A stretch of 64,000 bases of DNA. Origin: an uncultured Spirochaetota bacterium. Its GTDB lineage: Bacteria; Spirochaetota; Spirochaetia; SZUA-6; Fen-1364. Below the pieces are notes generated by a model. It was not told the origin of the DNA. It worked only from the letters and a program-made list of their open reading frames with translations, and ran no database searches. Where the stretch lies: contig CAWGAA010000003.1 in assembly GCA_963820525.1 (NCBI GenBank), positions 800,001 through 864,000 of the forward strand, written 5' to 3'. The translations under genes and the position numbers were made by a program. Shown one piece after another: positions 28,042 through 62,761 of this stretch (positions are counted from its first letter, which is position 1; every line of letters starts with the position of its first letter).

Positions 28042-28236
28042 GTTCAACATAGGGTTTACGCTCCGCTCCCTCCGGTCGCTCCGGGCTTCGCCACATGCCC
28101 CTCTGGCACAGGGCTTGCAGATCAAATCTTCTTACGGTCCTCTAAGATGTGTGGTACACTCTTTTCTATGTTTTGCGGGGCAACCCCTGTGCCAGCCCTT
28201 CGGGACGGGGCATGTCGTAAACCCTTTACGTTATAC
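28042..28236. repeat. Outer attC-like site (transposase subtype)
   Basis: GTTCAAC...GGGTTTACG/CGTAAACCC...GTTATAC with internal stems. Confidence 0.85.
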
Positions 28237-28240
28237 GCCA

Positions 28241-28280
28241 TTGCGCCTTTGTGCATCAGCTGTATAATATGATGTTAGCT
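28241..28280 (+). promoter_or_regulatory. Carrier head: promoter plus inner attI-like site
   Basis: TTGCGC-16-TATAAT-ATGAT-GTTAGCT. Confidence 0.7.
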
Positions 28281-28337
28281 CCTTTAAAGAATTTTTACGT
28301 CATTATTATATCTCTGGATTTTGCTTAGAAATACTAT

Positions 28338-28838
28338 ATGTCACAGAAAATGATGACTAGAAATTATCGGTCTGCAATAATTATTTTTATTGGCATTTTG
28401 TTAGTATCGCTTTTGGGATATTTTTTAATAACCAAGAACACTATTGTTGAAGTGTTAAAGTATAGAGAATTCAAAAATGAGCTTGATTCTTTTATAAAGA
28501 ATTTGAATAAGAATGAATTTGAAAAAGCTGCCTATCAATTCCATTTTCTTGAAGCACAAAGTATTGGAATTGAACAATTAAAAAGAAACTTAGAGTCTAT
28601 AAAGAATAGATTTGGTAAAATAATTAATGGATCTAATAATATAACTTATTTAAAAACTAATAATGATAATATTTCATATTATGCCATTATTAGAATAGAG
28701 AATCCAAAAAATGATGGTGAAGTATTAGAAATAGTTGTGTATGAAGAAAATGGATACGGGAAACCTACTATTACTATATTTAATGGAATTGAATTTAAGG
28801 ATGAAATAAATCTCACAGATTGGGTAATAATGAATTAA
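28338..28838 (+). CDS. AT-rich membrane-anchored hypothetical protein (inner cassette)
   Basis: 166-aa ORF with N-terminal TM, followed by attC. Confidence 0.75.
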   Translation: MSQKMMTRNYRSAIIIFIGILLVSLLGYFLITKNTIVEVLKYREFKNELDSFIKNLNKNEFEKAAYQFHFLEAQSIGIEQLKRNLESIKNRFGKIINGSNNITYLKTNNDNISYYAIIRIENPKNDGEVLEIVVYEENGYGKPTITIFNGIEFKDEINLTDWVIMN

Positions 28839-28846
28839 GGAAAAGG

Positions 28847-28965
28847 AGCTAACATGCTGTTGAACTTGACGCCTAACACTTGTTGCAGCCATAGTTGCCT
28901 ACGTCCATAGAACCTTATTGCTTTTGGCTTCGGGTCGGCGGCGCAAGTTAACAGCGTTGTTATCT
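28847..28965. repeat. Inner classical-type attC
   Basis: AGCTAAC-ATGCT-GTTGAACTTG...CAAGTTAAC-AGCGTT-GTTATCT, extrahelical base in L box. Confidence 0.85.
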
Positions 28966-29013
28966 GGCCCCAAGTCCTTTCAAGATTGCCGTGGCCAATA
29001 GGAGAACCGATGA

Positions 29014-31026
29014 ATGAGTGCCAAACGTGCAGCTGTGACCGCAGGACTCCATCCAGAAGCGAACCTTTCACATTTCACTCCGTACGAGCAGGAACTAATC
29101 CAGAAGCAGTTCTGCACCGAGTTCTATGTAACAAACCAAGGCGGCGTAGTCGAGCTGAGCAGGACATCGGTCTACAGATTCTTCTTGATCAAGCCAACCA
29201 CAGTCTATCAGGAGCAGTTTAACCTCGATCGGGAGATTGTCGTTCTCTTTAGCGACTATCCGAATTTTGAGCCGCGTACGCTGGATGCTATTGAGGAAGC
29301 TTATAAAAGGTACCAGGAACTCCGCATAGAGAAGATATGCTCAGTTCTTATAAGTAGAGATGTGGAAATTGAGCAAAAAATAAAAAGCCTCCTGAAAAAC
29401 ACCAGTGAGAGCCAGATCATCGTTCCATTCCACTACAAGGAGTTGCAGACAGTCTCCGACCTATATTTCTTCAGGAATAGATTCAAAGCCCATTTCTACA
29501 GCAGAGACCTTTTCTCATATGAATCTGCACTCAAGAAGGACCTCTACTTTTTCGGCAGGAGTGATCTCGTTCACAAGGTAGTCAATAGACATCGCAGTGG
29601 AGAGAATTCCGCACTTTTCGGGCTGAGGAAAACCGGTAAGACCTCTATCATTTTCGGAATACGCAGGGTGCTAAACGCGACTGAGGAGAACTCTGTCTAC
29701 ATCGACTGCCAGGACTCCGGCTTCTATTTAAAGAGATGGAATCACGCCCTTCGCTATATAATCGACGAAATAAAATCTCAAAACCACGCGTCCGTAATCT
29801 TGTCCGATGAATCCGAATACACTGAGGATGGCTGTAGCGCGGCTTTTGCAAGAGACATATCAAAGTTGCGCAAGAAACTCGGCGGTAAGCCGATAATGAT
29901 CATTTTCGATGAGCTGGAGCGTATAACATTCGGGCTTTCTTCGGCCGAGCATTGGAAAACGGGGAAGGACTTCGTCCATTTCTGGAGAACTCTTAGGTCT
30001 CTGTTTCAGAAGCTGGAGAGCGTTTTTACCTATCTTATTGTTAGCACGAACCCTCGCTCGGTAGAGACGCCTATGGTCAACGGTGACGAGAATCCCATCT
30101 TTTCTCAAGTTCCATACGAATATATCCCGCCATTTGATGTACCTCAGACGAAGGAAATGGTCGAACGCTTGAGCCAGATCATGGGCCTTCACTTCGATGA
30201 GATTCTGTATTCGAAATTGACGGAGGATTTTGGAGGCCATCCATTTCTCATTCGCATGGTTTGCAGCGCGATCAATCGCCTTTGTGACTCAACGCGGCCA
30301 GTGAGAGTCGATAAAACCGTTTACGAGAAAGGCAAGCAACTCTTCAATAAAGAATATAGTAGCTACATAGAGATGGTGGTCACTGTTCTTCGAGAGAGCT
30401 ATTCCGACGAGTTCGAAATGCTCAAGTTCCTAGCGCTTGGCGACATACCGACCTTTATGGAGTTCGCCTCCGCATCTCGAGAGTACACAAATCACCTTCT
30501 CGGCTACAACATCGTTGATCAAAATAACCAATCCTACTCCTTCAAGATCGAATCGATCAGGGAGTATCTGATATCCGAGAACAAGTACAAGAAGCTAGGC
30601 TTAACAAAGAAAGAGATGCTTGCCGAGATATCCGAACGTCGCAATGAACTGGAACCCCGGCTGAGAAACTTGGTGCGCCAAATTCTGCTTGTGGCAATCG
30701 GCGAGTCTGCCGCCGCCACCCTGGTTCGCAATATCTACGGTGATCCGAGAAAAACTAGATATGCTGGCCTTTCCTACAAAGAATTGTTTAATCCAAATAG
30801 GGTAGATATCTATTGGGACGATCTTCAAAAGATTGTCTTAGCCGAATGGGACCACTTCCAGAATGTGTTCGAAAGAGACAGAGAGGCGTTCATCGTGAAT
30901 ATGAAGGCCGTCAACAAGTATCGGTCTGACGCACACGCAAAGGATATCTCTCCGGAAGAGATGGAACTCTTTCGAGTGTGCGCGACGAGATTGGAGACGC
31001 AGATACGAAACTTCTTCGGAGGATAG
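29014..31026 (+). CDS. P-loop ATPase (STAND/AAA-like) with possible C-terminal HEPN-like domain
   Basis: GLRKTGKTS Walker A, IIFDELE Walker B, GGHPF, C-terminal YRSDAH. Confidence 0.75.
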   Translation: MSAKRAAVTAGLHPEANLSHFTPYEQELIQKQFCTEFYVTNQGGVVELSRTSVYRFFLIKPTTVYQEQFNLDREIVVLFSDYPNFEPRTLDAIEEAYKRYQELRIEKICSVLISRDVEIEQKIKSLLKNTSESQIIVPFHYKELQTVSDLYFFRNRFKAHFYSRDLFSYESALKKDLYFFGRSDLVHKVVNRHRSGENSALFGLRKTGKTSIIFGIRRVLNATEENSVYIDCQDSGFYLKRWNHALRYIIDEIKSQNHASVILSDESEYTEDGCSAAFARDISKLRKKLGGKPIMIIFDELERITFGLSSAEHWKTGKDFVHFWRTLRSLFQKLESVFTYLIVSTNPRSVETPMVNGDENPIFSQVPYEYIPPFDVPQTKEMVERLSQIMGLHFDEILYSKLTEDFGGHPFLIRMVCSAINRLCDSTRPVRVDKTVYEKGKQLFNKEYSSYIEMVVTVLRESYSDEFEMLKFLALGDIPTFMEFASASREYTNHLLGYNIVDQNNQSYSFKIESIREYLISENKYKKLGLTKKEMLAEISERRNELEPRLRNLVRQILLVAIGESAAATLVRNIYGDPRKTRYAGLSYKELFNPNRVDIYWDDLQKIVLAEWDHFQNVFERDREAFIVNMKAVNKYRSDAHAKDISPEEMELFRVCATRLETQIRNFFGG

Positions 31027-31033
31027 TGGGGAT

Positions 31034-31147
31034 GGATAGCATGCGGTTGAAGCTGACGGTTTGCTTTTGTCTGATCGGTTCGCCATATCATGTTATAGAC
31101 TGTACTCTTATTAGCTGACTCGACGCAACTTAACCGCGTTTTTATAG
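31034..31147. repeat. Inner attC, degenerate
   Basis: GCGGTTGAAGCTG / CAACTTAACCGC arms; R boxes are GGATAGC and TTTATAG. Confidence 0.7.
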
Positions 31148-31196
31148 GCTGTAAATGGTAGAAAAAGGAAGTAGTTTACTACAAAGGCGCATCGGC

Positions 31197-31330
31197 GCAT
31201 AACGGCACATTGGCGTTCCGGTGCCCTACGGGCACCTTCGGGCTCCGCGGCGCTGCGGCGCGCCGCTCCGCCAAATGTCCCTCGGCCCTGTTGGCCTCTG
31301 GCCACTTCGCCAATGTGCTGCACGTTAAGT
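31197..31330. repeat. Outer attC-like site
   Basis: GCATAAC...GCACATTGGCG/CGCCAATGTGC...GTTAAGT. Confidence 0.85.
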
Positions 31331-38805: not shown

Positions 38806-39001
38806 GTTCAACATAGGGTTTACGCTCCGCTCCCTTTGGTCGCTCCGGGCTCCACCACATGCCCCTCTGGCACAGGGGTTGCAGGTCAAATCTTCTTACG
38901 GTCCTCAAAGATGTGTGGTACACTCCTGTCTATGCTTTGCGGGGGCAACCCCTGTGCCAGCCCTTCGGGACGGGGCATGTCGTAAACCCTTTACGTTATA
39001 G
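38806..39001. repeat. Outer attC-like site (transposase subtype)
   Basis: GTTCAAC...GTTATAG. Confidence 0.85.
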
Positions 39002-39005
39002 GCCA

Positions 39006-39044
39006 TTGCGCCAAGAGTTTTTGCAGTATAAGGTATTTTTATGC
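39006..39044 (+). promoter_or_regulatory. Carrier head, degenerate
   Basis: TTGCGC-15-TATAAG-GTATT-TTTATGC (GTT replaced by TTT). Confidence 0.5.
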
Positions 39045-39292
39045 GTCTATTTTTTGGATGGCTCCCAATGTACAAGGGCCTCCAACGAAAGCCCAGCGAC
39101 ACAGAACTTAACGCGTTCGGTGCTGGTACTCGCGATCCTAGTCGATACTCCGTGATTAAGTGCACAGCTCAGCACGAAACCCATATTATATTGGATAGCA
39201 CTACTTGCCGGGCTGTGTTGCAATCCCCCGTCACCGGGGGGTCGCACTCTCACGAAAAGTAGCGCGCCGTGTAGCTTTCCAAGGAGGGTTCC

Positions 39293-39841
39293 ATGCTTCC
39301 TAATGTCCTTAACAGCACTGGACTCCTTGCATTCACAATCGGGATAGGCTACTCTGTACTCGTTCCCATTTGGCCGCTCTTGCGTATTCCACACTACCTC
39401 TGGCTTAAGATCCTCCATGACAAGAAGATCGACGCTAGATACACATACGCTGATCGTAGAAAGGACTTGCCGTGCATCCTGGGAGTAATAGAGAGAATGC
39501 TCTACCTCCTCTCCATGCTCTACGGCCATCCCGAATTCGTTGCACTATGGCTTGGGCTCAAATCGGCCGGACAGTGGAAATCTTGGTCGAAAGGAGAGAC
39601 CTATCCGATATCTTCGACGAATAAGCAACCTGCAACCGAAACAATCAACGGCAGATCAATCGCCTCCATTTTCTTCATCGGCAGCGGGCTATCTCTCCTG
39701 TTCTCGGCTGGGGGATTCTTGTTGGCAACGGGCTGGGATTGTCAGCGCGTGGACGCCATCACAGTCGCGGCTGGTATACTCATCCTCACATCGCTGATCC
39801 ATCTCTTTCTCTTCGCAAGGTTCAAGCGCTACGATCCATGA
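39293..39841 (+). CDS. Membrane protein (inner cassette)
   Basis: AGGAGG RBS, LGVIER motif, TM segments, followed by attC. Confidence 0.75.
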   Translation: MLPNVLNSTGLLAFTIGIGYSVLVPIWPLLRIPHYLWLKILHDKKIDARYTYADRRKDLPCILGVIERMLYLLSMLYGHPEFVALWLGLKSAGQWKSWSKGETYPISSTNKQPATETINGRSIASIFFIGSGLSLLFSAGGFLLATGWDCQRVDAITVAAGILILTSLIHLFLFARFKRYDP

Positions 39842-39846
39842 TGGAC

Positions 39847-39953
39847 GAATAACAAATCGTTGACCGCCGTGCTGCTGTCTATGAGACTCGCCTTAGTCTG
39901 GAAGTCATGAGGATGCAGGGGGCTCTACGGGGCGGCAGCTCAGCTTTATTTTA
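39847..39953. repeat. Inner attC, interrupted by MITE at its right end
   Basis: GAATAAC-AAATC-GTTGACC...GCAGCTCAGC. Confidence 0.65.
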
Positions 39954-40267
39954 GGCTCTTCGCGGAATCGAGTGGGTAAAATTCGGGTGATTTTTAGCGG
40001 TTTGTGGTTCTGCATCCGAGAATTATGCGCATGCAACATGAGTTCATCCCAAATTCCCTCGAATTCCCACGGTTTTCTGAGCATTCTTGGTAACGAAATC
40101 TCGCTCGTTTTATTTCATGACACCTAAAATCTACCCACGAACGGCGTTGACTGCCTTTCATATTTGTAACACATTTTTAGGCACGATAACACCACCTAAT
40201 CCTTTACTGAGTAATAAGATACGTCCCATTCTACTACTTTTTTACCCACTCGAGAACACGAAGACCC
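39954..40267. mobile_element. MITE (314 bp), possibly IS1595-derived
   Basis: Imperfect terminal IRs with core TCGAGTGGGTAAAA/TTTTACCCACTCGA; 8-bp direct repeat TTATTTTA on both flanks. Confidence 0.75.
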
Positions 40268-40353
40268 TTATTTTATATTTTTAAGGGGATCTAAATATAA
40301 TTGAACGATCAATATATAATGGCGCAACGGTCTATAATTGGAGTTATAGGCCA

Positions 40354-40385
40354 TTGCGCCAGGCTGACATAATGTAATGTTAGAT
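40354..40385 (+). promoter_or_regulatory. Carrier head / inner attI-like site
   Basis: TTGCGC-8-CATAAT-GTAAT-GTTAGAT; spacing too short for that -35. Confidence 0.6.
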
Positions 40386-40407
40386 GCCATTAAAGGGAAA
40401 GGGTATA

Positions 40408-41607
40408 ATGAGTCTGCCACACTGGTTGCGTTCCATCGACAACGGCAGGATTGGAGAGGCGCGTACACGTGCTATACTGATCGATCGCTTCTGGATTCTG
40501 GAACGGAGCGTTGATATTGAGGGCGCCGATTTCATCGTCCAGCGCAAGATCTGGGGCCGCAATCTCCTAGACGAAAGGGCTCCACGACTGGGATATGTAC
40601 AGTCTAAGTTCGCCCAGGACGAGGCAACCAGACTGGAGATACATTCCGACTATGTGCTTGATTCCGATAAACAGCCGCGTGACGAATTCTTCCTATTTGT
40701 ACATACTGGAGTGCCTGGTTCTGAGACGATCTACTTTTTTGCCGCTCGAGACATCATTCAAACATTTCACAAGGGTGCCGACTGCTTCATGGTGTCAATG
40801 GGAGATGTGAAAAAGCTGCCCGATTCTCAAGTCCATTCCACAGACTACGTGCTGTCGGTCATCGAGCACGCCCTGACTCAGGCAGATTTCCGGAAGAATC
40901 GCCTTTTCTATCACTACTTGAGGCTTGATGATACAATTGACACTCCAATTGACCACGATTTCACACTTCCACTAAGCAACTATTGGGGCGATGTCGTGCA
41001 TGGCATCCAGGAGATAAAGTTAAGAACCAACACACTAATTCATGACCTTGAACACGATATTGCGAAGCTCAAGGTGGCTTTAGGGACTTCTGACCCAGTT
41101 CAGTTTATGGAGACTTTTGAATTCGAGCATTTCTACGTCCTTGAAGACTTCTTCTATCGAAACAGCAAATACTTCGATAGCGAATTCTATAATGTATTGG
41201 TCAATCACAAGAAGAGAGTCAAATTACTCAGGGGGCGCGGCCTGTTGCAACAGTTCATTCTATTAAAATCGCACGTGGCTCGAGAAGTGGAGGCTAGAAT
41301 AGGAAAACACAAGGAGGAGGTCGAAGAGTATTTTTGTGTTGAGTTCAGATTACGGACAAGCGATCTATCAATTCTCGAAGTTAAGGACTATGGCGCTAAG
41401 CGCGAGAAAGTAGTTCCCCCCAAGCCCAGCGGCGTCCAGGAGTTTTATGGGGTGATCAACACAGACGACACCTACACCTTGTACGTTCGAGGTATGGATG
41501 TATTCTCGGGTGACGATGTAGCCAAGCGAGCACTCAGCTACTTAACCGACAAGTTTGATGAGGTGCTTCTTGAGCAACTATTCGGAGAAGCTGAACTCTA
41601 TGGCTGA
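40408..41607 (+). CDS. PD-(D/E)XK nuclease-like protein (DUF4365-like N-terminus)
   Basis: IGE...ERSVDIEGADF...YVQSK motif. Confidence 0.65.
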   Translation: MSLPHWLRSIDNGRIGEARTRAILIDRFWILERSVDIEGADFIVQRKIWGRNLLDERAPRLGYVQSKFAQDEATRLEIHSDYVLDSDKQPRDEFFLFVHTGVPGSETIYFFAARDIIQTFHKGADCFMVSMGDVKKLPDSQVHSTDYVLSVIEHALTQADFRKNRLFYHYLRLDDTIDTPIDHDFTLPLSNYWGDVVHGIQEIKLRTNTLIHDLEHDIAKLKVALGTSDPVQFMETFEFEHFYVLEDFFYRNSKYFDSEFYNVLVNHKKRVKLLRGRGLLQQFILLKSHVAREVEARIGKHKEEVEEYFCVEFRLRTSDLSILEVKDYGAKREKVVPPKPSGVQEFYGVINTDDTYTLYVRGMDVFSGDDVAKRALSYLTDKFDEVLLEQLFGEAELYG

Positions 41608-41611
41608 TGGC

Positions 41612-41727
41612 ATCTAGCAAATCGTTAAAGTTATCCGTCTGAGAGCCTCTTGGAACTGTCTTTTTTTTCCGCAGAACTGTAAGTACATGGCTTCCGGTGG
41701 GGCGCCAACTCAACTCTATGGTTATAG
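41612..41727. repeat. Inner attC (left R box AAC changed to AGC)
   Basis: ATCTAGC-AAATC-GTTAAAGTT...AACTCAAC-TCTATG-GTTATAG. Confidence 0.75.
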
Positions 41728-41836
41728 CGCTTCAGTTCTGGGTCGCGACCGATCCAACCCGTTGCCTCGAAAGCGTCCTGATAACCTGCCTTGAAATGTG
41801 CCTTATCTTCTTGTACCCTGGTCTTGGAGTCCAATA

Positions 41837-42922
41837 ATGACGACAACGCTGGCTGAAAGAATCCTATCCAGTGGCGCTTCTTCCGAGACGTTCTCCGAGG
41901 CGCTTTCGAAACAAGATCTATCCCCGGTATTTGTATGCGGGGACGCTCTGGAAACACTCCGGAAGTTTCCTTCTGAGTCTATTGACTCCTGCCTTACAAG
42001 TCCTCCGTATTGGGGAAAACGCGAGTACGACTCAGGTGGCATTGGCCTCGAACCTACTCACAAACTATATATCGACCATTTGGCTGAAGTGTTCTCGGAG
42101 CTACGGCGCGTCCTTAAATTGACCGGTTCCTTCTGGCTTAATATTGGTGACTCCTACCAAAACAAAGCGCTTCTCGGCATTCCTTGGAGGCTTGCTCTAC
42201 GGTTGGTTGACACTCAAGGCTGGGTACTTCGTAACAGCGTAATATGGAACAAAGTGAAGGGCGGGCCGGACAATACCGGCGACAGACTTAGAAACATACA
42301 TGAGGATCTTTTTCATTTCGTTAAGTCCGCGAAAGACTACTACTATGATTCAGCCTCAATCCGGACAAATCCGCACCAAGCCAAGGTAGTAAACGGCGCC
42401 ATCGTATCAGCAACTGGTGTAACAGGCGTCAGGTACCGAAGGCAGATTGAGCTTTCGACCTCGCTGACTGAGTCCGAGAAGGAGACAGCGCTGTCTGAAT
42501 TAGAGAAGATGCTCGATAGAATTAGGAACAAAGAAATTGCCGACTTTCGGATGATCATCCGCGGGCAGCAGAGAACAACTCACTCGGATTCCACTAGGGT
42601 ATCGGGACGAGCAAAGGAGCTTGCCACAAAAGGGTTCTACTTCCTCATTTATCATCCGGACGGCAGCAAACCAAGTGACGTCTGGGAGATTATCCCGGAG
42701 GACACGCAGAAGCGTGAAGCCCATTTTGCTCCTTATCCGGAAGACCTTTGTCGAATTCCGATCCTCTCGACTTGCCCTCCCGGTGGTGTGGTAATCGATC
42801 CCTTCGTTGGTACTGGAACAACCACTTTGGTAGCATTCAAGTTGCAGAGAAGGTCCATTGGAATCGATATCTCCGAAGCATATCTCAGGCACGCCAGCGA
42901 AAGGTGTAACCTGCTGCTATGA
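41837..42922 (+). CDS. N4/N6 DNA methyltransferase (beta class)
   Basis: TSPPY motif IV precedes DPFVGTGTT motif I; HFAPYP. Confidence 0.9.
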   Translation: MTTTLAERILSSGASSETFSEALSKQDLSPVFVCGDALETLRKFPSESIDSCLTSPPYWGKREYDSGGIGLEPTHKLYIDHLAEVFSELRRVLKLTGSFWLNIGDSYQNKALLGIPWRLALRLVDTQGWVLRNSVIWNKVKGGPDNTGDRLRNIHEDLFHFVKSAKDYYYDSASIRTNPHQAKVVNGAIVSATGVTGVRYRRQIELSTSLTESEKETALSELEKMLDRIRNKEIADFRMIIRGQQRTTHSDSTRVSGRAKELATKGFYFLIYHPDGSKPSDVWEIIPEDTQKREAHFAPYPEDLCRIPILSTCPPGGVVIDPFVGTGTTTLVAFKLQRRSIGIDISEAYLRHASERCNLLL

Positions 42923-43768: not shown

Positions 43769-43839
43769 TAGAACGTGGGTGCTCCCAAATGAGGCGCTAT
43801 AACATGTGGTTAGATTTGATATCGTGTGGCCGCAACGGC

Positions 43840-43938
43840 CTATAACAACGCGTACACGCTCCGCTCCCTTCGGTCGCTCCGGGCTTCGCCACATGCCTCG
43901 CTTCGCTCGGCACGTCGTGTACGCGCGGGACGTTATGG
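43840..43938. repeat. Outer attC-like site
   Basis: CTATAAC...CGCGTACACG/CGTGTACGCG...GTTATGG. Confidence 0.85.
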
Positions 43939-43942
43939 GCAA

Positions 43943-43981
43943 TTGCGCCAGGAGTCTTTCCAGCATAATGCAATGTTATGG
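43943..43981 (+). promoter_or_regulatory. Carrier head: promoter plus inner attI-like site
   Basis: TTGCGC-15-CATAAT-GCAAT-GTTATGG. Confidence 0.65.
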
Positions 43982-44928: not shown

Positions 44929-44942
44929 ATGCGTCAGAAACA

Positions 44943-45056: not shown

Positions 45057-45079
45057 ATTCTTGACTCGGTTCCTGAGCA

Positions 45080-47154: not shown

Positions 47155-47226
47155 TAATGAAATATCGCAAAGTACTATCATTTGATACATTCAATAAATG
47201 AATCCTCGGAAAGTAGGCACAACGGC

Positions 47227-47362
47227 ACATAACCGCCCGTAATGTGCATCGGCGCCCTACGGGCGCCTCGGGCTACGCGGCGCTACGGCGCGCCGCTCCG
47301 CCACATGGCCCCTCGGCCCTGTTGGCCTCGGGGCCACGTCACATACGGGCATCCCGTTAGCC
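47227..47362. repeat. Outer attC-like site
   Basis: ACATAAC...GCCCGTAATGTG/CACATACGGGC...GTTAGCC. Confidence 0.85.
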
Positions 47363-51339: not shown

Positions 51340-51429
51340 ATATAACAGCCGGTTGCCGGCGTCGCTACGCTCCGCTCAAATCGCGCTCCCGTTGGTCGCG
51401 CGACTTCGGCAACCGGCGGGACGTTATGC
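51340..51429. repeat. Outer attC-like site (short subtype)
   Basis: ATATAAC...GCCGGTTGCCG/CGGCAACCGGC...GTTATGC. Confidence 0.85.
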
Positions 51430-51433
51430 GCCA

Positions 51434-51473
51434 TTGCACCAAGAGGTATTTACTACATAGTATATTGTTATGC
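51434..51473 (+). promoter_or_regulatory. Carrier head: promoter plus inner attI-like site
   Basis: TTGCAC-16-CATAGT-ATATT-GTTATGC. Confidence 0.65.
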
Positions 51474-52787
51474 GCGCCTTTGCATCGATAGAACATGCAA
51501 ACGCGGCCATTGCCGTGCCGATGAAATTGCGAGCGCAGATTACGGGAGGCAATCGGCTTTAATAGCGCCGTTCGCCATGCTATGATCGTCGACAATAGGA
51601 AGATTGCAGTGGATCACGACAATGCGGGATCTAATCCAATTATCAGTCTGTCAAGCCATTTTCACGATAATATCGCCCAATACGAGGCAGACGGATATGA
51701 TGAAGCGAACGTGCGCGTTGACTTCATTGACAAAATGTTCGAACTCCTGGACTGGGACGTTCGAAACGACACCAATGCAAGCGAACGCTTTCGCGACGTT
51801 GTTCGAGAAGACAAGATTGAGATTGGCGGAAGAGAGAAGGCACCTGATTATAGCTTCAGAATTGGAGGGCAGAGGGTATTCTTTGTCGAAGCCAAAAAGC
51901 CGCACATTCGGATAGGAAGTGACCTTGGAGCCGCCTACCAGCTAAGAAGGTATGGCTACTCTGCGAAGCTTCCAGTTTCTATCCTAACCAACTTCAAGGA
52001 ATTCGCAGTATATGATACCCGGATTAAGCCGAACCACGGAGACGAGAGCGCCGTTGCAAGGCTCTTCTATTGCACATATGAGGACTATCCAGAACAGTTT
52101 CCGTTTCTCTATAGCACCTTTTCTAAGCCTTCCGTGATTAAAGGGGACCTCGACCGCTACGTCATAGACAATCGCACCAAGAAGGGTACTGCTGAAGTTG
52201 ACGAGGATTTTCTTTCATTGCTCTCGGGCTGGCGTAAAATCCTGGCAAAGCGAATTTCATCGCAGAACCCAGACATTGACGTCTTCCAGCTCAACCATGC
52301 AATCCAAGTACTTATTGACCGTATGGTCTTCCTTCGTATTGCAGAAGCTCACGACCTTGAAGAATACGCAACTCTCCAAAAAGCCGTCGAAAAAGCGAAC
52401 GGCTATTGGAATCTGAAAGGCGTGTTCGCCCTAGCCGATCAAAAGTACAATTCAGGGTTGTTTGCAGTGGATGATTTCCTTAATTCGCTAAAGATCGAGG
52501 ACAATGTTTTTCGGGACATAGTACAGGACCTCTATTATCCCAAGTGCCCGTATGAGTTCAGTGTTCTGCCTATAGAGATACTTGGTAAAGCATACGAGCA
52601 GTTTCTCGGACAAATCATTCGGCTAACTCCCTCACATCAAGTGAAGATTGAAGAAAAGCCCGAGGTGCGGAAAGCTGGCGGGGTCTTCTACACCCCAGAG
52701 TACATTGTGAGATATATCGTCCAATACACCCTGGGAGAGAAATTGAAGAAGGCATCGCCACAGGACGTGCCCGCTCTTTCCGTCCTA

Positions 52788-53926
52788 GTGTAGTGCGTCT
52801 CACGCTTCTTTACATTTGGCGATTTTGGCGAGGATGCGCTCAACCGGGGCACTCCAGACGAAGGCTTGCGGGTTTTGATTGTGATTCTCAAGGTACTGCT
52901 TAATAGCCGCAATCAGAGTCTGGACGTTGGGGAAAGTCCCACGACGAATTCTTTTATCGGTTATCTCACGAAACCAGCGTTCGACCATATTCAACCACGA
53001 ACTAGACGTCGGGATGAAATGCAGATGGTAGCGGGGGTGGCGTTGAATCCATGCTTTCACCCGAGCATGTTTGTGAGTCCCGTAGTTGTCCACGATCAGG
53101 TGAAGCTCCAATTCTGGTGGTGTCTCGACATCGATTTTTTTCAGAAACCGGATGAACTCCTGATGCCGATGCCGTGGCATGCAATCACCGATGACCCGTC
53201 CATCCAGCATGCTCAGAGCGGCGAACAACGTTGTCGTGCCGTTGCGTTTATAGTCGTGCGACTGACGAGCTGGAACACCCGGCCGCATGGGCAACAGCGG
53301 CTGGGTTCGGTCGAGCGCTTGAATCTGGCTCTTTTCATCCACACATAATACAAGAGCCTTATCCGGTGGATTCAGATACAGTCCGACTACGTCCTTCAGC
53401 TTCTCCACGAAGTTTTTATCACGACTGAGTTTGAACGTTTCCACCAGATGGGGTTTGAGATTGTGTTGTTTCCAGATGCGGCGAATACTGGCTTCGGAGA
53501 GTTTCTGTGCTCTGGCCATGCTCCGCGTACTCCAATGGGTGGCGTTTGCGGGAGTACTGTGCAAGGTTGCCTCTACCACTTTCTTGATTTTTCCTGCTGA
53601 GATGCGGGGATTTCTTCCCGGCCGGGGCGCGTCCTTCAGCAAACCCTCCACGCGCAGGGCGAGAAATCGCTGACGCCAAAGCTGAACCGTGGGACGTGAC
53701 ACGTGCAAAGCCCTGGCGATGTCCTGACTGTCTTGGCCATCAGCCGCTCGTGTGATGATCTGTGCGCGAATCACCTGCCGGTGAGGGAGACTTCTACTGT
53801 GTTTCCACGTGTCCAGCGTCCCGCGCTCGGCTTCGCAGAGTATAATCGCTTGGGCTTTCCTGCTCATTTCAAGGGTAGTATACAAGGAAGCGAGACATAT
53901 GTCAATAGATTTGTGACGCACTACAC
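52788..53926 (-). mobile_element. IS630-family insertion sequence
   Basis: IRs GTGTAGTGCGTC / GACGCACTACAC with TA duplication. Confidence 0.93.
52800..53867 (-). CDS. IS630 transposase
   Basis: CVDEKSQIQAL, IVDNYGTHK and SWLNMVE DDE motifs. Confidence 0.95.
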   Translation of the reverse strand: MSRKAQAIILCEAERGTLDTWKHSRSLPHRQVIRAQIITRAADGQDSQDIARALHVSRPTVQLWRQRFLALRVEGLLKDAPRPGRNPRISAGKIKKVVEATLHSTPANATHWSTRSMARAQKLSEASIRRIWKQHNLKPHLVETFKLSRDKNFVEKLKDVVGLYLNPPDKALVLCVDEKSQIQALDRTQPLLPMRPGVPARQSHDYKRNGTTTLFAALSMLDGRVIGDCMPRHRHQEFIRFLKKIDVETPPELELHLIVDNYGTHKHARVKAWIQRHPRYHLHFIPTSSSWLNMVERWFREITDKRIRRGTFPNVQTLIAAIKQYLENHNQNPQAFVWSAPVERILAKIAKCKEA

Positions 53927-55604
53927 TAGATCCGGCGTGTGGAAGCGGCAGCTTTTTGATCAGCGCTTACGATTATCTGCTTGGCTGGCACCTTGACTTA
54001 TACTCAAGAGAAGAGAACGTTAAGAAGGCACTAAAAGGCGGACGCATTTATCAATTAAAAGGAGGAGGCTACCGTCTCACAATAGAAGAGAAGCAGCGCA
54101 TTCTCCTGAACAACATATTCGGTGTGGACATAGATCAGCAAGCTGTAGAAGTCACCCGACTCTCTCTCCTGATTAGGCTAATGGAGGGCGAGAACCGCCA
54201 GAGTTCAGGCGAGCTCTTCAAACACAGTGACTTCAAGCTACTTCCGAATTTGAACGAGAACATCAAGTGCGGTAACAGTCTGATAGGAACTGATTTCTAT
54301 GCGGCCCAAAAGCAGGATCTCTTCGCGATGGACGACATGCGTCGAATTAATGCGTTTGACTGGAAGACCGAATTCCCTGCCGTGATGGATCGCGGCGGCT
54401 TTGACTGCGTCATAGGCAATCCTCCATATACCTACCTCATTCAAGAGGCCGAGCAAAAGTACTTTGTAGCGAAGTACAGGTTCCAAGACTACCAGAAGGA
54501 CCTATACCTACTGTTTCTTGAACGGTATCAGTTCTTGCTCAAGGCTGGCGGTCTACTTGGAGTAATAGTTTCCAATACTTGGATGCCTTCGCTCACGTAT
54601 TCGAGCATTCGCAGCTACCTGGTAACCAACTACATCTGGAAGAGGGTACTCCATCTGCCGGAAAAGGTGTTCGAAGCCGTTGTCGATACTCACGTGCTCG
54701 TGTTTGAAAAGGGAACTCCTCCCAAGAACCGAAATGTAGAATTTGTCGTTGACGAAATGCGACGAGAGAAGATCTCGCGGCTTCACATCCTGAACATGTC
54801 CGATCTGCCGTTGGATGGGGAACCAATAAACATCCAATCGAGTCCAAGGGAGATGGCGCTTTTCAAGAGGATCGAGAGGTCCTGCTCGCCTCTGTCAGAT
54901 CATTTTTCCGTTTTCAACGGCGTTAAGCCGTTCGAGAAGGGCAAGGGAAAACCACCACAAACCGAAAAGATTTGCCAGGAGAAGCCCTTCGTAGTCGAAG
55001 GCAAGAGGCCGGACGCGACTTGGTCCCCGTTGCTTCGCGGTGGCCTAATTGGACGGTATGTCAATCTCTGGAACAAGGACTATTGGATTCTTTACGGGGA
55101 CTGGCTTGCCGCCCCACGTGATCCGAAGATCTTCGACGAGCCGGAGAAGATCGCAATAAGACAAACGGGAGATTCGCTAATCGCAACGTTGATTGGTCGA
55201 GGATATGTCATGAGAAACAACATGCATATAATTCTTCCGAAGACAGGAAAGCTTGATCTAAGATATCTCCTGGGGCTGCTAAATTCTCGGCTGTTCGACT
55301 TCATATACACAACCATGAATCCCGAGAAAGGTGAAGCACTGGCGGAGGTGAAAAAGCAGCACGTCGAAAGGCTACCCATCCACATAGTTAGGCAAGATAG
55401 CGCTTCCGAGGTGTCTTTGGCAGATAAGCTGATCGCTCTCGTTGACAATATCTTGCAGGCCCGAAAGGAAGCAATTATACACGCAAAGACCGAGCATGAC
55501 AAGAAACTTGTTGATTCTCGTGTTGCCGAAATGCAGAAGGAGATCGACGAGATTGTATTCGCACTCTATGGCATGAATCGAGACGACCTTGAAATCCTGG
55601 GCAT

Positions 55605-55718
55605 GCATAACAAATCGTTGCAGTAGTCGCCTTTAGAGCCGTCTGGATCGGAAGTTGCAGTTCGGAATACAAGATGAGGCGGGTTGATGTGGCGGCGCTA
55701 CTGAACTCTATGTTATGC
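55605..55718. repeat. Inner classical-type attC
   Basis: GCATAAC-AAATC-GTTGCAGTAG...CTACTGAAC-TCTAT-GTTATGC. Confidence 0.88.
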
Positions 55719-55780
55719 TTCTTTTTGCTAAATGATCATGCATGTTGCAAAGCGCGGCAATATGATGGTAGCCTCCTAAA

Positions 55781-56962
55781 GTGATTCGAAGTAAACAAAA
55801 CCAACGCCCTTGGTATATAAACCAAGCCTATTGGCATGATCTTGCTACGAGATATATTGTGTCTGTTCAAAAAGTGAAAATGGGATCGCCTTATGCGGCA
55901 GAAATTGACGCTTTTCGCGAATTCAACATTGCTAAAGTCATCTTCGAAAGCAATCTCATTGAAGGGGCTGGACGTCCACTTGGTGAGACAAGGAAATTGA
56001 TTCTAGAATACTTTCCTCGATTCCCTTCAACTTTCACAGAATTCTATGGAACTGATGAGCGCGTGGATCTTCCACGGCTTCTCCTCAAGAATGGGCCATT
56101 TGCACAGATAAATGAGGAATTGCGCTCCTTGGGGTACGATCCAGCGCGCTTCACCCCAAGCATCAGCATGGCTGGGAGTTCAAGATCTGTAAAAGAGGTT
56201 GTTCAGCATCATAGCGCAATTCTCTATGCAATGTTTCATTCAATAGATTATCTCATCCATAGGACAATGTATGATTGGGCTCAGAGTCTTAAGACCGACA
56301 AACTTGATAAAAAATTGCAAAAAGAACTGGAAGAAGCAATCCTTAAGGAATACCCCCACGCAAGCACTCTAGAAGATATTCAAAGCCCAAAATTATTCGC
56401 CGAAAAAACAGTCAGCGAGTTGCATAAAACAATTGCTGAAGGAATTCTTCCAAACGATGCTAAGGTGGAAGCTGGAGAGTATAGAATTGATAACAGAATC
56501 GTCGGCTGGGACATAGTTTTCCCTTCACCAGAACTAATCTCCTTGATGATGCCGAAATTTGTGGATCGCGCAAATGACATTGTTCAGGGCATCCCTGTGA
56601 GAAAGCTGAACTTATTCGAGGCTGCAGCACGCATTTCGCATGATTTTGTTACAATTCATCCTTTTCCAGATTTCAATGGCAGGATCTCCAGAATTCTGAT
56701 GAACATGGTTTTACTCGCACATAATTGTCCATTTCCAGTAGCTCTTAAAGGCGGAAGCAAAGCCAAAGGCAAGTACTTTACCTCATTGAAGCGTGCGAAT
56801 AATGGCAATTTCATAGCACTATCCTCGCTTATCGCAATGCGGGTTACGGAGACATTCGAAGAACTCGACACGCATCTTAAGCGTGCTGGCCTTAGGAGCC
56901 TACTCACTTTGTCAAACCGGACACAGCGGAGCAACATTAGAAAATCAAACCCGAGAGATTAG
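55781..56962 (+). CDS. Fic family protein
   Basis: HPFPDFNGRISR Fic motif; SNLIEG inhibitory motif. Confidence 0.88.
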   Translation: MIRSKQNQRPWYINQAYWHDLATRYIVSVQKVKMGSPYAAEIDAFREFNIAKVIFESNLIEGAGRPLGETRKLILEYFPRFPSTFTEFYGTDERVDLPRLLLKNGPFAQINEELRSLGYDPARFTPSISMAGSSRSVKEVVQHHSAILYAMFHSIDYLIHRTMYDWAQSLKTDKLDKKLQKELEEAILKEYPHASTLEDIQSPKLFAEKTVSELHKTIAEGILPNDAKVEAGEYRIDNRIVGWDIVFPSPELISLMMPKFVDRANDIVQGIPVRKLNLFEAAARISHDFVTIHPFPDFNGRISRILMNMVLLAHNCPFPVALKGGSKAKGKYFTSLKRANNGNFIALSSLIAMRVTETFEELDTHLKRAGLRSLLTLSNRTQRSNIRKSNPRD

Positions 56963-56976
56963 GCAGAAGTACAGAA

Positions 56977-57088
56977 TCATAACAAGTTATGGGAGCTGTC
57001 TCCTTGAGTTCCGGTTGTTTTTATTTTGCATTGTTTGCTGTGTTTATAGAGGTCTGATTCGGCGGCGCAGCTCCACTCTATCATATGT
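56977..57088. repeat. Inner attC, right R box degenerate
   Basis: TCATAAC...TGGGAGCTG/CAGCTCCA-CTCTAT-CATATGT. Confidence 0.65.
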
Positions 57089-57135
57089 TGAAGAGATCTG
57101 GATAGAAATACATTATTATAATCTGGCGCAACGGC

Positions 57136-57205
57136 CTATAACCGCCCGTAATGTGCTTCGGTGCCCGCAAGAGCACCGAAGCACATTACGGGCAGCACGT
57201 TATAC
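57136..57205. repeat. Outer attC-like site (minimal unbranched subtype)
   Basis: CTATAAC...GCCCGTAATGTGCTTCGGTGC/GCACCGAAGCACATTACGGGC...GTTATAC. Confidence 0.85.
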
Positions 57206-59531: not shown

Positions 59532-59727
59532 GTTCAACATAGGGTTTACGCTCCGCTCCCTTTGGTCGCTCCGGGCTCCACCACATGCCCCTCTGGCACA
59601 GGGGTTGCAGGTCAAATCTTCTTACGGTCCTCAAAGATGTGTGGTACACTCCTGTCTATGCTTTGCGGGGGCAACCCCTGTGCCAGCCCTTCGGGACGGG
59701 GCATGTCGTAAACCCTTTACGTTATGG
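59532..59727. repeat. Outer attC-like site (transposase subtype)
   Basis: GTTCAAC...GTTATGG. Confidence 0.85.
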
Positions 59728-59731
59728 GACA

Positions 59732-59772
59732 TTGCGTCTTTGAGCATGTACAGTATAATCGTAATGTTAGGC
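59732..59772 (+). promoter_or_regulatory. Carrier head: promoter plus inner attI-like site
   Basis: TTGCGT-16-TATAAT-CGTAAT-GTTAGGC. Confidence 0.7.
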
Positions 59773-59813
59773 CCTGACCGAATTTATTCACACCCGTAAG
59801 GAGATTTCTCACA

Positions 59814-60560
59814 ATGGACATCCCACGTATATTCAACATCACTGAAAGTGCTCACCGCATCCACAACCCGATCACACCCGAAAAGCTTGCCACTCTCGGC
59901 GCTGCGCTGCGTCTGGAATCGGGGGCCCGAGTGCTCGACCTCGGCAGCGGTTCGGGGGAGATGCTATGCACCTGGGCACGCGATCACGGCGTCATCGGCA
60001 CCGGCATCGACATGAGCCAGTTGTTCACCGAGCAAGCGAGACTCCGTGCTGAAGAACTCGGCGTCGCCGATCAAGTCAAGTTCATCCATGGCGATGCTGC
60101 CGGCTATGTCTCTGACGAGAAGGCCAGTGTGGCAGCCTGTGTCGGTGCCACTTGGATCGCCGGTGGAGTCGTCGGCACTATCGAGCTTCTGGCGCGGAGC
60201 CTGCGCACCGGAGGGATCATCCTCATCGGCGAGCCCTACTGGCGGCAAACACCGCCGACGGAAGATGTTGCCAAGGGGTGTCTTGCCAACTCAATCTCCG
60301 ACTTTCTCATGCTTCCAGAACTTCTCGCGTCTTTCGGCCACCTTGGCTACGACGTCGTTGAAATGGTTCTGGCTGACCAAGACGGCTGGGACAGATACGA
60401 GGCGGCCAAATGGCTCACCATGCGCCGATGGCTTGAAGCCAATTCCGGCGACGAGTTCGCGAAAGATGTTCGAGCCAAACTGACCTCGGAACCCGAGCGC
60501 TACGCCGCTTACACGCGTGAATACCTGGGCTGGGGTGTGTTCGCGCTGATGCTGCGCTGA
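59814..60560 (+). CDS. Class I SAM-dependent methyltransferase (YjhP-like)
   Basis: VLDLGSGSGE motif I; MDIPRIF N-terminus and YLGWGVF C-terminus. Confidence 0.88.
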   Translation: MDIPRIFNITESAHRIHNPITPEKLATLGAALRLESGARVLDLGSGSGEMLCTWARDHGVIGTGIDMSQLFTEQARLRAEELGVADQVKFIHGDAAGYVSDEKASVAACVGATWIAGGVVGTIELLARSLRTGGIILIGEPYWRQTPPTEDVAKGCLANSISDFLMLPELLASFGHLGYDVVEMVLADQDGWDRYEAAKWLTMRRWLEANSGDEFAKDVRAKLTSEPERYAAYTREYLGWGVFALMLR

Positions 60561-60698
60561 TGCGTTGGCGCATCCGGCGGATCGTCAACGGCTGTGCCGC
60601 GCAACAGCTGGTGGCTCGCCGAGATGTGATTGCGCCTGAATTCATTTCTTATGGTCTAGTCATCCGTGCAATCAACAGAAAGCTCTGTCTCAAGCAGG

Positions 60699-60817
60699 GC
60701 CTAACGAATCGTTGCAGCTCTCCGCCGGAGCGCTGCTCGTGCAGTGTGGGCTTCAGCCGGGTAATGCGGTCAGAACGTGGTTTCATGTCGGGGCGTGAGC
60801 TGAACTCTATGTTACCT
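60699..60817. repeat. Inner classical-type attC
   Basis: GCCTAAC-GAATC-GTTGCAGCTC...GAGCTGAAC-TCTAT-GTTACCT. Confidence 0.85.
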
Positions 60818-60868
60818 AGCGATACTCATGCTAATGGGGTGACATTCAAAGACGCAGCGTCCCATAAC

Positions 60869-62585
60869 GAGTCTGTAGGAAAATATAGCCCAAAAGACAA
60901 CAGTTCTCCTTCAAACTCGATTCAAAAACGATTTATGAATGATCAGAAACCAAAAACCACTCTATCGATATAGATCATCGGACAATCGGTGTCCATTTTC
61001 TTTTCCATCATGCATTCACTCCAGACATCGCCTTTGAAATCTTTCCTATATTATGAACCATGCAATATAATAGCCATTGAATATTCACTTTCGCTTTCGT
61101 TCTCAGAGTGAATCTGTTCAGTCTCTTATGGAATGTGATATTCGCAAACACTGGTTCGATGATTGCCATCCGTCTTGAATATAAATCCCTGACCTCCGGC
61201 CGGTCGATCTTCTGGATCATTTGTGCCGAATAATTGGTGGAATTATCCTTGTCATCTATAAAGAGTGTCCGCTTGCCGCTGCTATTCTTTTTGCGATGAA
61301 AGCATTTATTTGTAAACCGACACCCCTTACAGTCGGACGCTTTGGATTGATAACGATGCCCCGAAGATCCATGAAGTATTGCATGTCCTATATGTTTCAG
61401 TGTTTTCCCGTTGGGACATGTATACGTGTTTGTTTTCTCATCATATGTGAAATTTTGAAATCCAAACTTATACTCGATACCCGAATGATCTTTCCTGTCC
61501 ACGAAGCGCTCGTCTCGTTTTCGAAAGTTGTAGTCCGGGATGATCGCCTCGATTTTCTTATCCGCGGCTGTTTTTAGGTTTTCTTCACAGAAGTAATTCG
61601 TGTCCGCAAGTACGGTCTTTCCTGAAAGAGGTTCTTCCTTGTCGGTGATGGCTTTCAGATTCTCTTCCGCCATTTCAAGAACGGGCTTGAATGTCCCATG
61701 TTCTTGCCCTTTCCCATAGGCTTCGGTGGCTATAATGACCTGGTTTTGTTCATCCGCGAGGGCGATCCCGTTATACCCCTGGATCATTCCGTGAGAAGTC
61801 TTGATCTTTGCGCTATCGTTATCCGTGATATTCGACTGTATTTCCTTGCCACGGTTGCCCTGTTTCGGCGTTTCTGTTTTAAGGAAGTCCTCGATGCGCT
61901 TGATCTTTGAGTCGATCCTATCAATGGCTTTCTTCTTTGGCGAAACTTCGGATCCTGATGCGGTTTCAGCTCTGTCGGTTACAGTATGCTTTTGAATGAG
62001 CAGTTTTACCGTTCTTTCAAGTTTTTCTTTTCTCCTTTTGAGATCCCTGAAGGTGCCGCTCGATTCTTTGGACGCGTTGGACGGCAGCTTGCATCCGTCA
62101 ATCGCAAACAGCTTTCCGCCGATGAGCTCCATTTCCTGGCACACCATGAGGATTTTCAGAAATATGCCGGCGATTTCATCCTTCATCGATGAGATGAAAT
62201 CCGCTATGACCGTGAAATGCGGGATGGAGTTTGCCGAAAGCGCTTTGGCTATGATATTCGTCTCGCAAAGCTCCATGATCCGTCGTGATGAAAATATGCC
62301 TCTGGAGTAGGCGAAAAGAATGATTTTCAGTAAAACCCGAGGATCATATGCAGGAGCACCGGTAAGATCGTTCTTATACTTTGAATCGAGCGCTGATAAA
62401 TCTATTTTCTCGTTGATCAGGTGATTGAGCGTGTATTCGAAGGTATCCATAAGCAGTTGCTCGCTGAACTGGACGACAATAAACTCGCCTTGATCCTGAT
62501 TATGATCCTTATACCGCGCCATGAAGCTATTGTGCGCTGGATATCAAATAGCGTAAAGTAGGCGCGTGGCTTTTCCTACAGAATC
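60869..62585 (-). mobile_element. IS1182-family insertion sequence inside an outer att site
   Basis: IRs GAGTCTGTAGGAAAA / TTTTCCTACAGAATC; AAC duplicated on both flanks. Confidence 0.88.
61008..62522 (-). CDS. IS1182 transposase
   Basis: GAPAYDPRVLLK, SSRRI, AIDGCK, LADTNY and IEPVFANI motifs. Confidence 0.92.
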   Translation of the reverse strand: MARYKDHNQDQGEFIVVQFSEQLLMDTFEYTLNHLINEKIDLSALDSKYKNDLTGAPAYDPRVLLKIILFAYSRGIFSSRRIMELCETNIIAKALSANSIPHFTVIADFISSMKDEIAGIFLKILMVCQEMELIGGKLFAIDGCKLPSNASKESSGTFRDLKRRKEKLERTVKLLIQKHTVTDRAETASGSEVSPKKKAIDRIDSKIKRIEDFLKTETPKQGNRGKEIQSNITDNDSAKIKTSHGMIQGYNGIALADEQNQVIIATEAYGKGQEHGTFKPVLEMAEENLKAITDKEEPLSGKTVLADTNYFCEENLKTAADKKIEAIIPDYNFRKRDERFVDRKDHSGIEYKFGFQNFTYDEKTNTYTCPNGKTLKHIGHAILHGSSGHRYQSKASDCKGCRFTNKCFHRKKNSSGKRTLFIDDKDNSTNYSAQMIQKIDRPEVRDLYSRRMAIIEPVFANITFHKRLNRFTLRTKAKVNIQWLLYCMVHNIGKISKAMSGVNA

Positions 62586-62717
62586 AACAGCGGTTAATGC
62601 GCATCGCCGCCCTTCGGGCGGCTCGGGCTTCGGCGCGCTGCGCCGCGCGCCTCAGCCACATGGCCCTTCGGCCTTGTTGGCCTCAGGGCCACGTCTCATA
62701 ACCGCGGCACGTTATGC
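62586..62717. repeat. Outer attC-like site (left box separated by IS1182)
   Basis: AAC-AGCGGTTAATGCG...CTCATAACCGC...GTTATGC. Confidence 0.82.
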
Positions 62718-62721
62718 GCCA

Positions 62722-62761
62722 TTGCACCAGCTTAGATTTTCTGCATAATATGATGTTGGGC
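62722..62761 (+). promoter_or_regulatory. Carrier head: promoter plus inner attI-like site
   Basis: TTGCAC-16-CATAAT-ATGAT-GTTGGGC. Confidence 0.65.

Follow-up and report, generated by a model that had tools for sequence, protein, structure and literature searches.

An attI-like site on the cassettes of a second integron-like system holds canonical integron cassettes in an uncultured spirochaete

Integrons are described as flat arrays, with one attI per platform and the cassettes lying side by side. Here I describe a stretch of 64,000 nucleotides (nt) from an uncultured sediment bacterium of the Spirochaetota (G000:C3:800001-864000, where G000 is the bacterium's own genome of 5.05 Mb and C1, C2 and C3 are its contigs), hereafter the window, in which one system has its recombination sites nested within those of another, and in which cassettes carry an attI-like site about with them. 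The first of these systems is the canonical integron type, two integrons of which are found elsewhere in the same genome; the second, to be called System 2, occupies an integron-like array that spans 26727 to past 64000 on the plus strand, to the right of a recombinase gene. Eight of its cassettes in the window open with a conserved head, and these I call carriers. A first-pass annotation of this DNA had proposed that such carriers hold ordinary integron cassettes, expressing them and moving them as a block. As far as comparison of sequences can tell, the core of that proposal holds: ordinary cassettes occupy the carriers at one constant, attI-like site, and a carrier can move as a block.

Insertion of cassettes by IntI at GWT sites of the genome, termed attG, has been described, with expression near promoters (bioRxiv 10.1101/2022.09.11.507474). 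The site in the heads is like attG in that insertion takes place at a GTT outside attI and attC and that expression would depend on a nearby promoter, whereas attG sites are scattered and structurally distinct from attI, and the carriers reuse a single position within a conserved 45-bp module that is itself mobile. The superintegrons of the Vibrionaceae carry gene-less promoter cassettes (bioRxiv 10.1101/2023.11.21.568050 / PMC11014356), and the carriers may likewise serve to bring a promoter into an array. However, the gene-less promoter cassettes act on downstream neighbours of the same system, and the portion of that report consulted mentions neither inner cassettes nor an attI-like site. 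A search at the level of titles and abstracts, which is no proof of absence, found no description of an attI-like site inside cassettes or of cassettes nested in cassettes.

The conserved head, 45-48 bp in length, consists of GTTATNNGNCATTGCRYC, about 14 nt (7 in the head at 40343, a shortening by 8 nt), YAYAAT, 5-6 nt and G|TT. The pattern GTTATRSGVMATTGCRY matches exactly seven times, always on the plus strand and at the very places where seven outer units had been reported (28230, 38995, 40343, 43932, 51423, 59721 and 62711, here carriers A, B, C, D, F, G and H), with 0.00 matches expected from 100 shuffles. The -10-like boxes and the second GTTs of these units are also as first written down, with GTT in six of the seven and TTT in the unit at 38995. 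A relaxed pattern adds an eighth head at 46401 (E) and no others in the 5.05-Mb genome, and an RT variant of the pattern gives one extra match on contig C1.

The outer units of the first-pass annotation are real, and the pairing of their ends shows them to be cassettes that belong to a second system. Cassettes of System 2 end in long sites of 100-145 nt with the layout R''(YATAAC)-L''...L'-R'(GTT), and the 18 nt past the crossover are complementary to an 18-nt stretch closed by the R'' AAC of the long site downstream, which is that of the same cassette. Of 40 cassette starts with a long site on both sides, 32 pair better with the following long attC and two with the preceding one, and six are ties among tandem look-alikes. 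Of 19 heads, 17 fit the following long attC better, none fits it worse and two are ties; the first 18 nt of a head are the 3' arm of the stem of its own cassette's attC. As the heads match their own following long site, they are the 5' ends of System 2 cassettes. The bottom strand is the more stable one in 29 of 29 long sites, with a mean difference of -5.6 kcal/mol (circular form, DNA parameters), and in all 30 well-paired cassettes (e.g. window 46258-46418) stem position 11 is an A opposite a C on the top strand, that is, G-T on the bottom strand. Stem pairing and strand asymmetry together imply that the long sites behave like attCs, with a much longer and cassette-specific R stem. The position of the crossover of System 2 can be read from an IS91-family transposase cassette that is present in four copies in the window, namely 26727..28231 (plus strand, NF033538 at 7e-126, with its own long-type attC whose R'' is GTTCAAC), 35546-37050, 37491-38996 and 58217-59722. 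These copies are 96-100% identical, one stands at the attI of System 2 and three stand after long attCs, and since their neighbours differ directly after the first GTT, the first GTT is the crossover. Two more copies lie on G000:C1, at about 2,097,890-2,099,255 and 3,095,568-3,097,073.

The first inner cassette of a carrier starts at the second G|TT of the head. The pairings between this second site and the left box of a different attC behind the inner gene are found as first reported: GTTAGCTCCTTT at 28274 pairs with AAAGGAGCTAAC at 28843, GTTAGATGCCA at 40379 with TGGCATCTAGC at 41608, GTTAGGCCCTG at 59766 with CAGGGCCTAAC at 60698, and GTTATGC at 51467 with GCATAAC at 55603. In 12 non-identical units from the window, relatives and metagenomes, an average of 9.2 of the 11 nt at the second GTT fit the R'' of the first inner attC, with at least 9 in eight units and a perfect fit in five, as opposed to a mean of 5.8 for the 132 non-cognate pairs (maximum 9, five scoring at least 9). 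The fit is poor, 4/11, in the window unit at 43975. On this comparison the second GTT is a true boundary of a canonical cassette, and, again in agreement with the first reading, no attC precedes it.

In order to place the inner sites among those of the whole genome, a profile was built from six inner sites and one site of contig C1. It finds 193 sites, of which 176 are at C1:683,760-824,377, seven beside a second IntI gene, four on C2, and six are the inner sites on C3. A laxer search adds the inner attCs 39845-39957 and 60698-60814, giving eight canonical-type attCs in the window, all of them inside six carriers: two each in A and F and one each in B, C, D and G, with none in E and H. Carriers C and D each hold one additional, truncated inner attC. 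The 176 matches over 140 kb make up a very large canonical chromosomal integron, the IntI of which, at C1:682092-683030 (410 bits), belongs to a 411-residue open reading frame (ORF) with a long N-terminal extension; a second, small canonical integron, with an IntI of 448 bits (C1:1954228-1955157), is located at C1:1,954,228-1,967,484. Two canonical IntI genes that could act in trans, as the first-pass annotation had surmised, are therefore encoded on contig C1, and the inner attCs are of the ordinary cassette type, as they are of the same family as those of the 176-site integron. Judged by their R''-spacer-L''...L'-spacer-R' layout and by their homology to an array beside a bona fide IntI, the inner sites can be assigned to the canonical attCs.

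At least 12 different inner cassettes, in three genomes and on six metagenome contigs, have the same insertion point, 5-6 nt past the box. In the arrays of System 2, 19 of 20 canonical-type attC matches stand behind a head without an intervening long attC, and the 20th is at the start of a contig. An inner attC is present in 10 of 22 head cassettes and in none of 21 non-head cassettes (Fisher p = 5e-4), a count of cassettes with both ends known that omits the loaded window carriers A, B, C and G, the upstream site of which the script did not recognise, and that concerns related rather than independent sequences and metagenome loci ascertained through their heads. After the last inner attC comes a tail of 24-70 nt without clear conservation, and then the long site of the carrier. 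Several inner crossover triplets have changed, R'' being AGC at 31030 and 41608 and TAC at 44946, and R' being TTT both at 31141 and at about 39950; in carrier B, TTT is found at the second site as well. This decay of inner sites looks like a locking of the cargo into the carrier. Two similar truncations affect carriers C and D, whose last inner attC breaks off after R''-spacer-~18 nt (43801-43831 and 46236-46257) and passes directly into the long attC.

Could all this be the work of a single system? Both types of site have the R''-L''...L'-R' layout and G|TT crossovers, and several inner sites are decayed or truncated, so that one integrase might serve both types of attC in an ordinary mixed array, with the head as a conserved 5' leader and inner cassettes fused by the chance loss of sites. 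I consider this quite improbable. A canonical cassette needs a left recombination site, and its partner is always a head and never a long attC (19/19). Moreover, the head and the distal long attC covary across the inner cassettes (17/19), and the two families of sites are kept apart in the genome, as the 176-site array is free of long attCs and the other clusters of long attCs are free of canonical ones.

The nested arrangement is not confined to the window. Among 40 related genomes (G-numbers; L-numbers denote loci from relatives and metagenomes), heads are present in G001 (seven), G004 (two) and G003 (two), and G006 and G028 have one match each, which departs from the pattern of the heads. 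A scan of genome contigs returned 57 loci, mostly chance matches in unrelated phyla, the real ones being the Spirochaetota records G001, G003 and G004; the metagenome scan gave 17 rows for 16 loci, about 13 of them real. The full order of head, canonical cassette, canonical-type attC, short tail and long site is seen in L003 (from G001) and L005 (from G003), and on six metagenome contigs, L063, L070 (twice), L071, L074, L075 and L077. The head and cargo start of carrier G recur at 99.2% identity over 123 nt in L077 and at 98.5% over 131 nt in L064. This identity begins at the first GTT, behind three different upstream sequences: in the window an IS91 cassette precedes it, and in the two contigs it is preceded by other units. 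A loaded carrier found with different upstream neighbours moves as a block, as the first-pass annotation had supposed.

The same observation bears on the possibility that the nesting is reversed, and that [tail - long attC - head] is a mobile unit without an ORF that has invaded a canonical array. The topology would be equivalent, as the two kinds of site alternate, and the tails are indeed short at 24-70 nt. However, the attC upstream of carrier G varies and its cargo stays the same, the heads match the following and not the preceding long attC in the counts given above, and no such module occurs within the 176-site canonical array, which makes the reversed nesting barely credible. A composite attC, with the long attC plus head forming the loop of a canonical attC, was considered as well and rejected, as in carrier A a tail comes after an inner attC that is complete, and the heads covary with the following attC.

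How much the second site resembles an attI was judged against the canonical integrons of the family. The junction could be fixed in 10 of 24 canonical intI loci from the own genome and its relatives, the other 14 having no attC within the stretch examined. One of the ten, that of the genome's second integron, is unlike the heads, and the other nine are roughly AAAAC-N3-5-TAATAT-(G/A)WTT-G|TTA. The attI of the 176-site integron is TATAATATAAATG|TT, in longer form CTATAATATAAATG|TT, and reads ...AAAACTCTATAATATAAATG|TTATATCC from its first cassette, with the R'' GGATATAAC at 683,760. The left arm of the head site is identical to canonical attIs at up to 11 of 12 positions; the attI of L090, TAGAATATGATG|TT, may be set beside the head at 28230, TATAATATGATG|TT. 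With a 13-nt position weight matrix made from ten canonical attIs (the nine and that of the 176-site integron), the six head sites of the window rank 15, 21, 24, 48, 77 and 81 among 1644 GTT positions (Mann-Whitney p = 3e-5). The likeness to attI seems real but modest, and the stronger argument for a specific site is not the matrix but the many different cassettes at the same nucleotide.

As in a canonical integron platform, cassettes with canonical-type attCs are thus joined, at the G|TT junction of the first cassette with a left arm that is not an attC, to a double-stranded site (inverted L-like box, 5-6-nt spacer, R box) by a -10-like box, and this left arm bears a modest resemblance to the attIs found in the canonical integrons of the spirochaete family. 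Unlike a canonical attI, the site is not beside an integrase gene. It is located inside mobile cassettes of the second system, and its eight copies in the window lie at distances of 1.6-36 kb from the local recombinase, with the canonical IntIs on a different contig. In addition, the site coincides in part with the stem of another recombination site, and the upstream AAAAC motif is missing. The YAYAAT box, 16-17 nt from TTGCRY, is conserved across genera, and TTGCRY matches the -35 consensus at three of six positions. The box and TTGCRY each have a double role as L-like box or stem arm.

The explanation I prefer, to which I would give a probability of roughly 0.6, is one of two nested gene-capture systems. 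System 2 would comprise a short IntI-like recombinase, an attI and cassettes ending in attC-like sites, with the crossover at the first G|TT. The last ~13 nt of its heads (YAYAAT, 5-6 nt, G|TT) would be selected to act as a double-stranded simple site with L box, spacer and R box, like the canonical attIs of the family, and a canonical integrase supplied in trans would recombine the folded attC of a free canonical cassette with it. One or two canonical cassettes would thereby be placed directly after the -10-like box of the head, from which they could be transcribed. The loaded carrier would still be a System 2 cassette, and recombination at the first GTTs could move it in one piece. Decay at a later stage, by change of GTT to TTT or of AAC to AGC or TAC, or by truncation of the inner attC, would lock the cargo in.

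A number of observations weigh against this explanation. When the comparison is limited to the 299 GTTs whose left side is as rich in A/T, the heads rank 11-57, an ungapped 17-nt attI matrix performs weakly (among the matches listed, five head sites rank 18-106), and the AAAAC motif that precedes the canonical attIs is absent from the heads. The canonical array of the genome encodes no paralogue of any of 15 cargo proteins, and in G003, where a nested unit is present, no canonical IntI was found in an assembly that is 94% complete and in 490 contigs. An inner attC is lacking in 12 of 22 head cassettes, and in several unloaded heads (e.g. L002, L003, L004 and L070) TC, CA or CG takes the place of TT after the conserved G. 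The border of head and cargo thus keeps its position also where no canonical cassette can be recognised in the cargo, which a reading of the site as attI only does not explain. The metagenome loci had been chosen with a pattern that demanded the second GTT. A consensus promoter scan lists no head, as the -35 element matches at only three of six positions, and its overall counts are 20 vs 22.8 expected and 42 vs 29.6 expected. Finally, empty carriers, suggested as a check on the first-pass annotation, were not found by a pattern search for a head followed by the start of a long attC within at most 330 nt, in the own genome, five loci of relatives and 16 metagenome loci.

Some of these points would fit an opportunistic hot spot, in which the second GTT is an ordinary GWT site of the attG type behind a cassette-borne promoter, only the expressed insertions are kept, and no docking role has evolved. 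GTT is not conserved in unloaded heads, the matrix likeness is modest once A/T content is matched, and IntI1 inserts at GWT genome sites at up to about 1e-3, with ~10% of insertions expressed near a resident promoter and with excision possible (bioRxiv 10.1101/2022.09.11.507474). Such a hot spot nevertheless appears rather unlikely to me in view of at least 12 different inner cassettes at one nucleotide, 5-6 nt past the box, in several genera and samples, the absence of canonical attCs from all 21 non-head cassettes, and the left arm that is up to 11/12 like the canonical attIs of the family. It also requires a promoter activity that for the head is only predicted, and the consensus scan calls no head.

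The first-pass annotation is thus borne out in part. Its boundary, its nesting, its movement of carriers as blocks and its IntI genes are all found, and its empty carriers are not, and the attI likeness that it stressed is modest. It overlooked the heads that have cargo but no inner attC, about half of those counted, and the TC, CA or CG at the second site of several of them. Within the preferred explanation of two nested systems, a more specific and more tentative idea, which I hold at somewhat below even odds, is that the head is a portable attI, and that one family of the cassettes of this second-tier integron, whose recombinase lacks an insert, are mobile docking-and-expression modules that capture cassettes from the canonical pool. 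If heads are portable attIs, the decay or truncation of inner attCs (carriers A, B, C and D) would convert captured cassettes into cassettes of the second system.

The recombinase beside the array is a tyrosine recombinase of 265 residues, encoded at 25826..26623 on the minus strand (Pfam Phage_integrase PF00589, 1.6e-39), in which an alignment with canonical IntIs shows the R, HxxR, H and Y catalytic motifs. Its closest families are the integron integrases, at a score below the cut-off: the cut-off of TIGR02249 is 265 bits and the recombinase reaches 191, in two stretches (97 and 96 bits) that skip profile positions 179-237. Relative to the two canonical IntIs of the genome it is without ~25, 6 and 11 residues (~42 in all). 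By these comparisons it has the catalytic domain of an IntI, lacks the IntI-specific segment and falls short of the TIGR02249 cut-off. It is possible that the G-T pair at stem position 11 is a mark of strand choice for a recombinase without this segment. Full-length orthologues with 69-71% identity adjoin like arrays in G001 and G004, and orthologues were found in these two and the own genome, with none in 21 genomes of genus g3. Homologues at 47-54% identity occur in three further families of the order; in G025, G026 and G039, which carry distant homologues, neither profile finds attC-like sites within 1.5 kb, flanks that are too short for a conclusion.

The attI of System 2, at 26624..26728 on the plus strand, has its crossover at ...CACACACAACGAG|TT with the G at 26726, where the first IS91 cassette copy begins, and its left arm, CACACAACGAG|TT, is unlike the second site of the heads. 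With a recombinase gene divergent from the array, folded sites, G|TT crossovers and a favoured bottom strand, System 2 has the features of an integron-like platform, and the same layout is present in G001 and G004. Three direct repeats of GAAATTCACA, of which 0.18 are expected, bracket the recombinase gene (25776-25822 and 26708-26717), one of them inside the attI, and the left pair encloses a small inverted repeat, CAATAAC...GTTATTG. These repeats may be the outer boundary of the platform or binding sites of the recombinase.

The individual carriers, all on the plus strand, differ in cargo and in the state of their sites. Carrier A (28230..31326; head 28230-28274) holds a cassette for a 166-residue protein, with its attC at 28843-28961 and an inner pairing of 11/11, and one for a 670-residue STAND-like NTPase, with a degenerate attC at 31030-31143 (R'' AGC, R' TTT); its tail is at 31142-31185 and its long attC at 31186-31326. 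Carrier B (38995..40345) has its head at 38995-39037, the mutated TTT at 39038-39040, and one inner cassette for 182 residues whose attC, 39845-39957, also has TTT as R'; its long attC has collapsed to R''-TGGA-R' (40321-40345). Carrier C (40343..43934) combines the short head 40343-40379 with a 407-residue cassette (attC 41608-41723, R'' TAGC), a second cassette with an N6/N4 methylase and a 215-residue protein that ends in the truncated attC 43801-43831, and a long attC at 43832-43934. In carrier D (43932..46403; head 43932-43975) a DUF2971 cassette with attC 44946-45052, the poorly pairing one (4/11), is followed by a 363-residue cassette with the truncated attC 46236-46257 and by the long attC 46258-46403.

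The carrier-like cassette E (46401..47358) starts with GTTATGTGCCATTGTGCC, has no clear -10 box and no inner attC, and carries an 8xMP-like gene; it has one mismatch to its own long attC vs four to the preceding one. Carrier F (51423..57201; head 51423-51467; inner pairing 9/11) contains a type IIG restriction-modification cassette (attC 55603-55714) and a Fic cassette (attC 56973-57089), with the tail at 57088-57124 and a short attC at 57125-57201. Its type IIG-like gene (HSDR_N and Eco57I/TaqI_C; 51582-52793 and 53956-55626) is split by an IS630-like element (DDE_3) at 52800-53921 on the minus strand. Carrier G (59721..62713; head 59721-59766) has a methyltransferase cassette with attC 60698-60814 and a pairing of 11/11, and an insertion sequence (IS) with a 504-residue DDE transposase at about 60976-62588, inserted at the R'' of its long attC 62584-62713. 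Carrier H (62711..64000) has the head 62711-62755 with a second GTT, a DUF1214 gene and another ORF, and no inner attC was seen in it; its long attC, to which it has one mismatch, lies past the end of the window at about 64151-64292.

The IS in carrier G (DDE_Tnp_1_6/DUF772; ORF 61008-62522, minus strand) has the end ...CCTACAGAATCAAC, and in three places, the window, G000:C1 near 3,086,309 and C3 near 875,317, this end coincides with the R'' of a long attC. Such an end at R'' in three different sites suggests an attC-targeting IS. The 3' ends of carriers share short motifs, TCAATAAATGAAT in D and E (46225-46240 and 47195-47212) and GAATGAAAT and GTGAATGGG elsewhere (e.g. L005 7790-7805), and purine-rich runs (ATAGAAAGRGRAAGA) directly precede the long attC in several tails. 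Among the cassettes without heads, those at 37051-37491 and 48802-49245 are paralogous, ~75% alike, with no long plus-strand ORF and with different attC subtypes. A 227-bp cassette without an ORF at 47358-47584 has a start that differs from the heads and no clear box, and it was not counted as an empty carrier.

To the left of the platform, window positions 1-25800 are housekeeping DNA of ~63% GC with trpE, trpB, htpG and an ABC permease, and the GC content drops to ~48% from 26000 onward. The cargo of the array is mostly defence-like, with restriction-modification genes, the STAND-like NTPase, Fic, and HNH and GIY-YIG nucleases. Rfam gave no matches at E up to 0.1 across 25000-64000. Contigs from two DNA sequencing runs yielded only short, low-depth pieces without an informative joint when compared with 28100-35500, and the loose ends of these contigs at 28233 and 28244 fit other copies of the IS91 cassette.

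For the question of how folded sites are recognised by a relative of IntI that has no IntI-specific segment, the array provides natural substrates in its 18-bp extended stem and in the G-T pair that is invariant at stem position 11. If the heads act in the proposed way, integron systems with different recombinases could exchange cassettes, and the slot next to a promoter could be multiplied along the array. Genes could also change their cassette 'badge', a natural route to a new cassette identity that would bear on the unsolved origin of cassettes.

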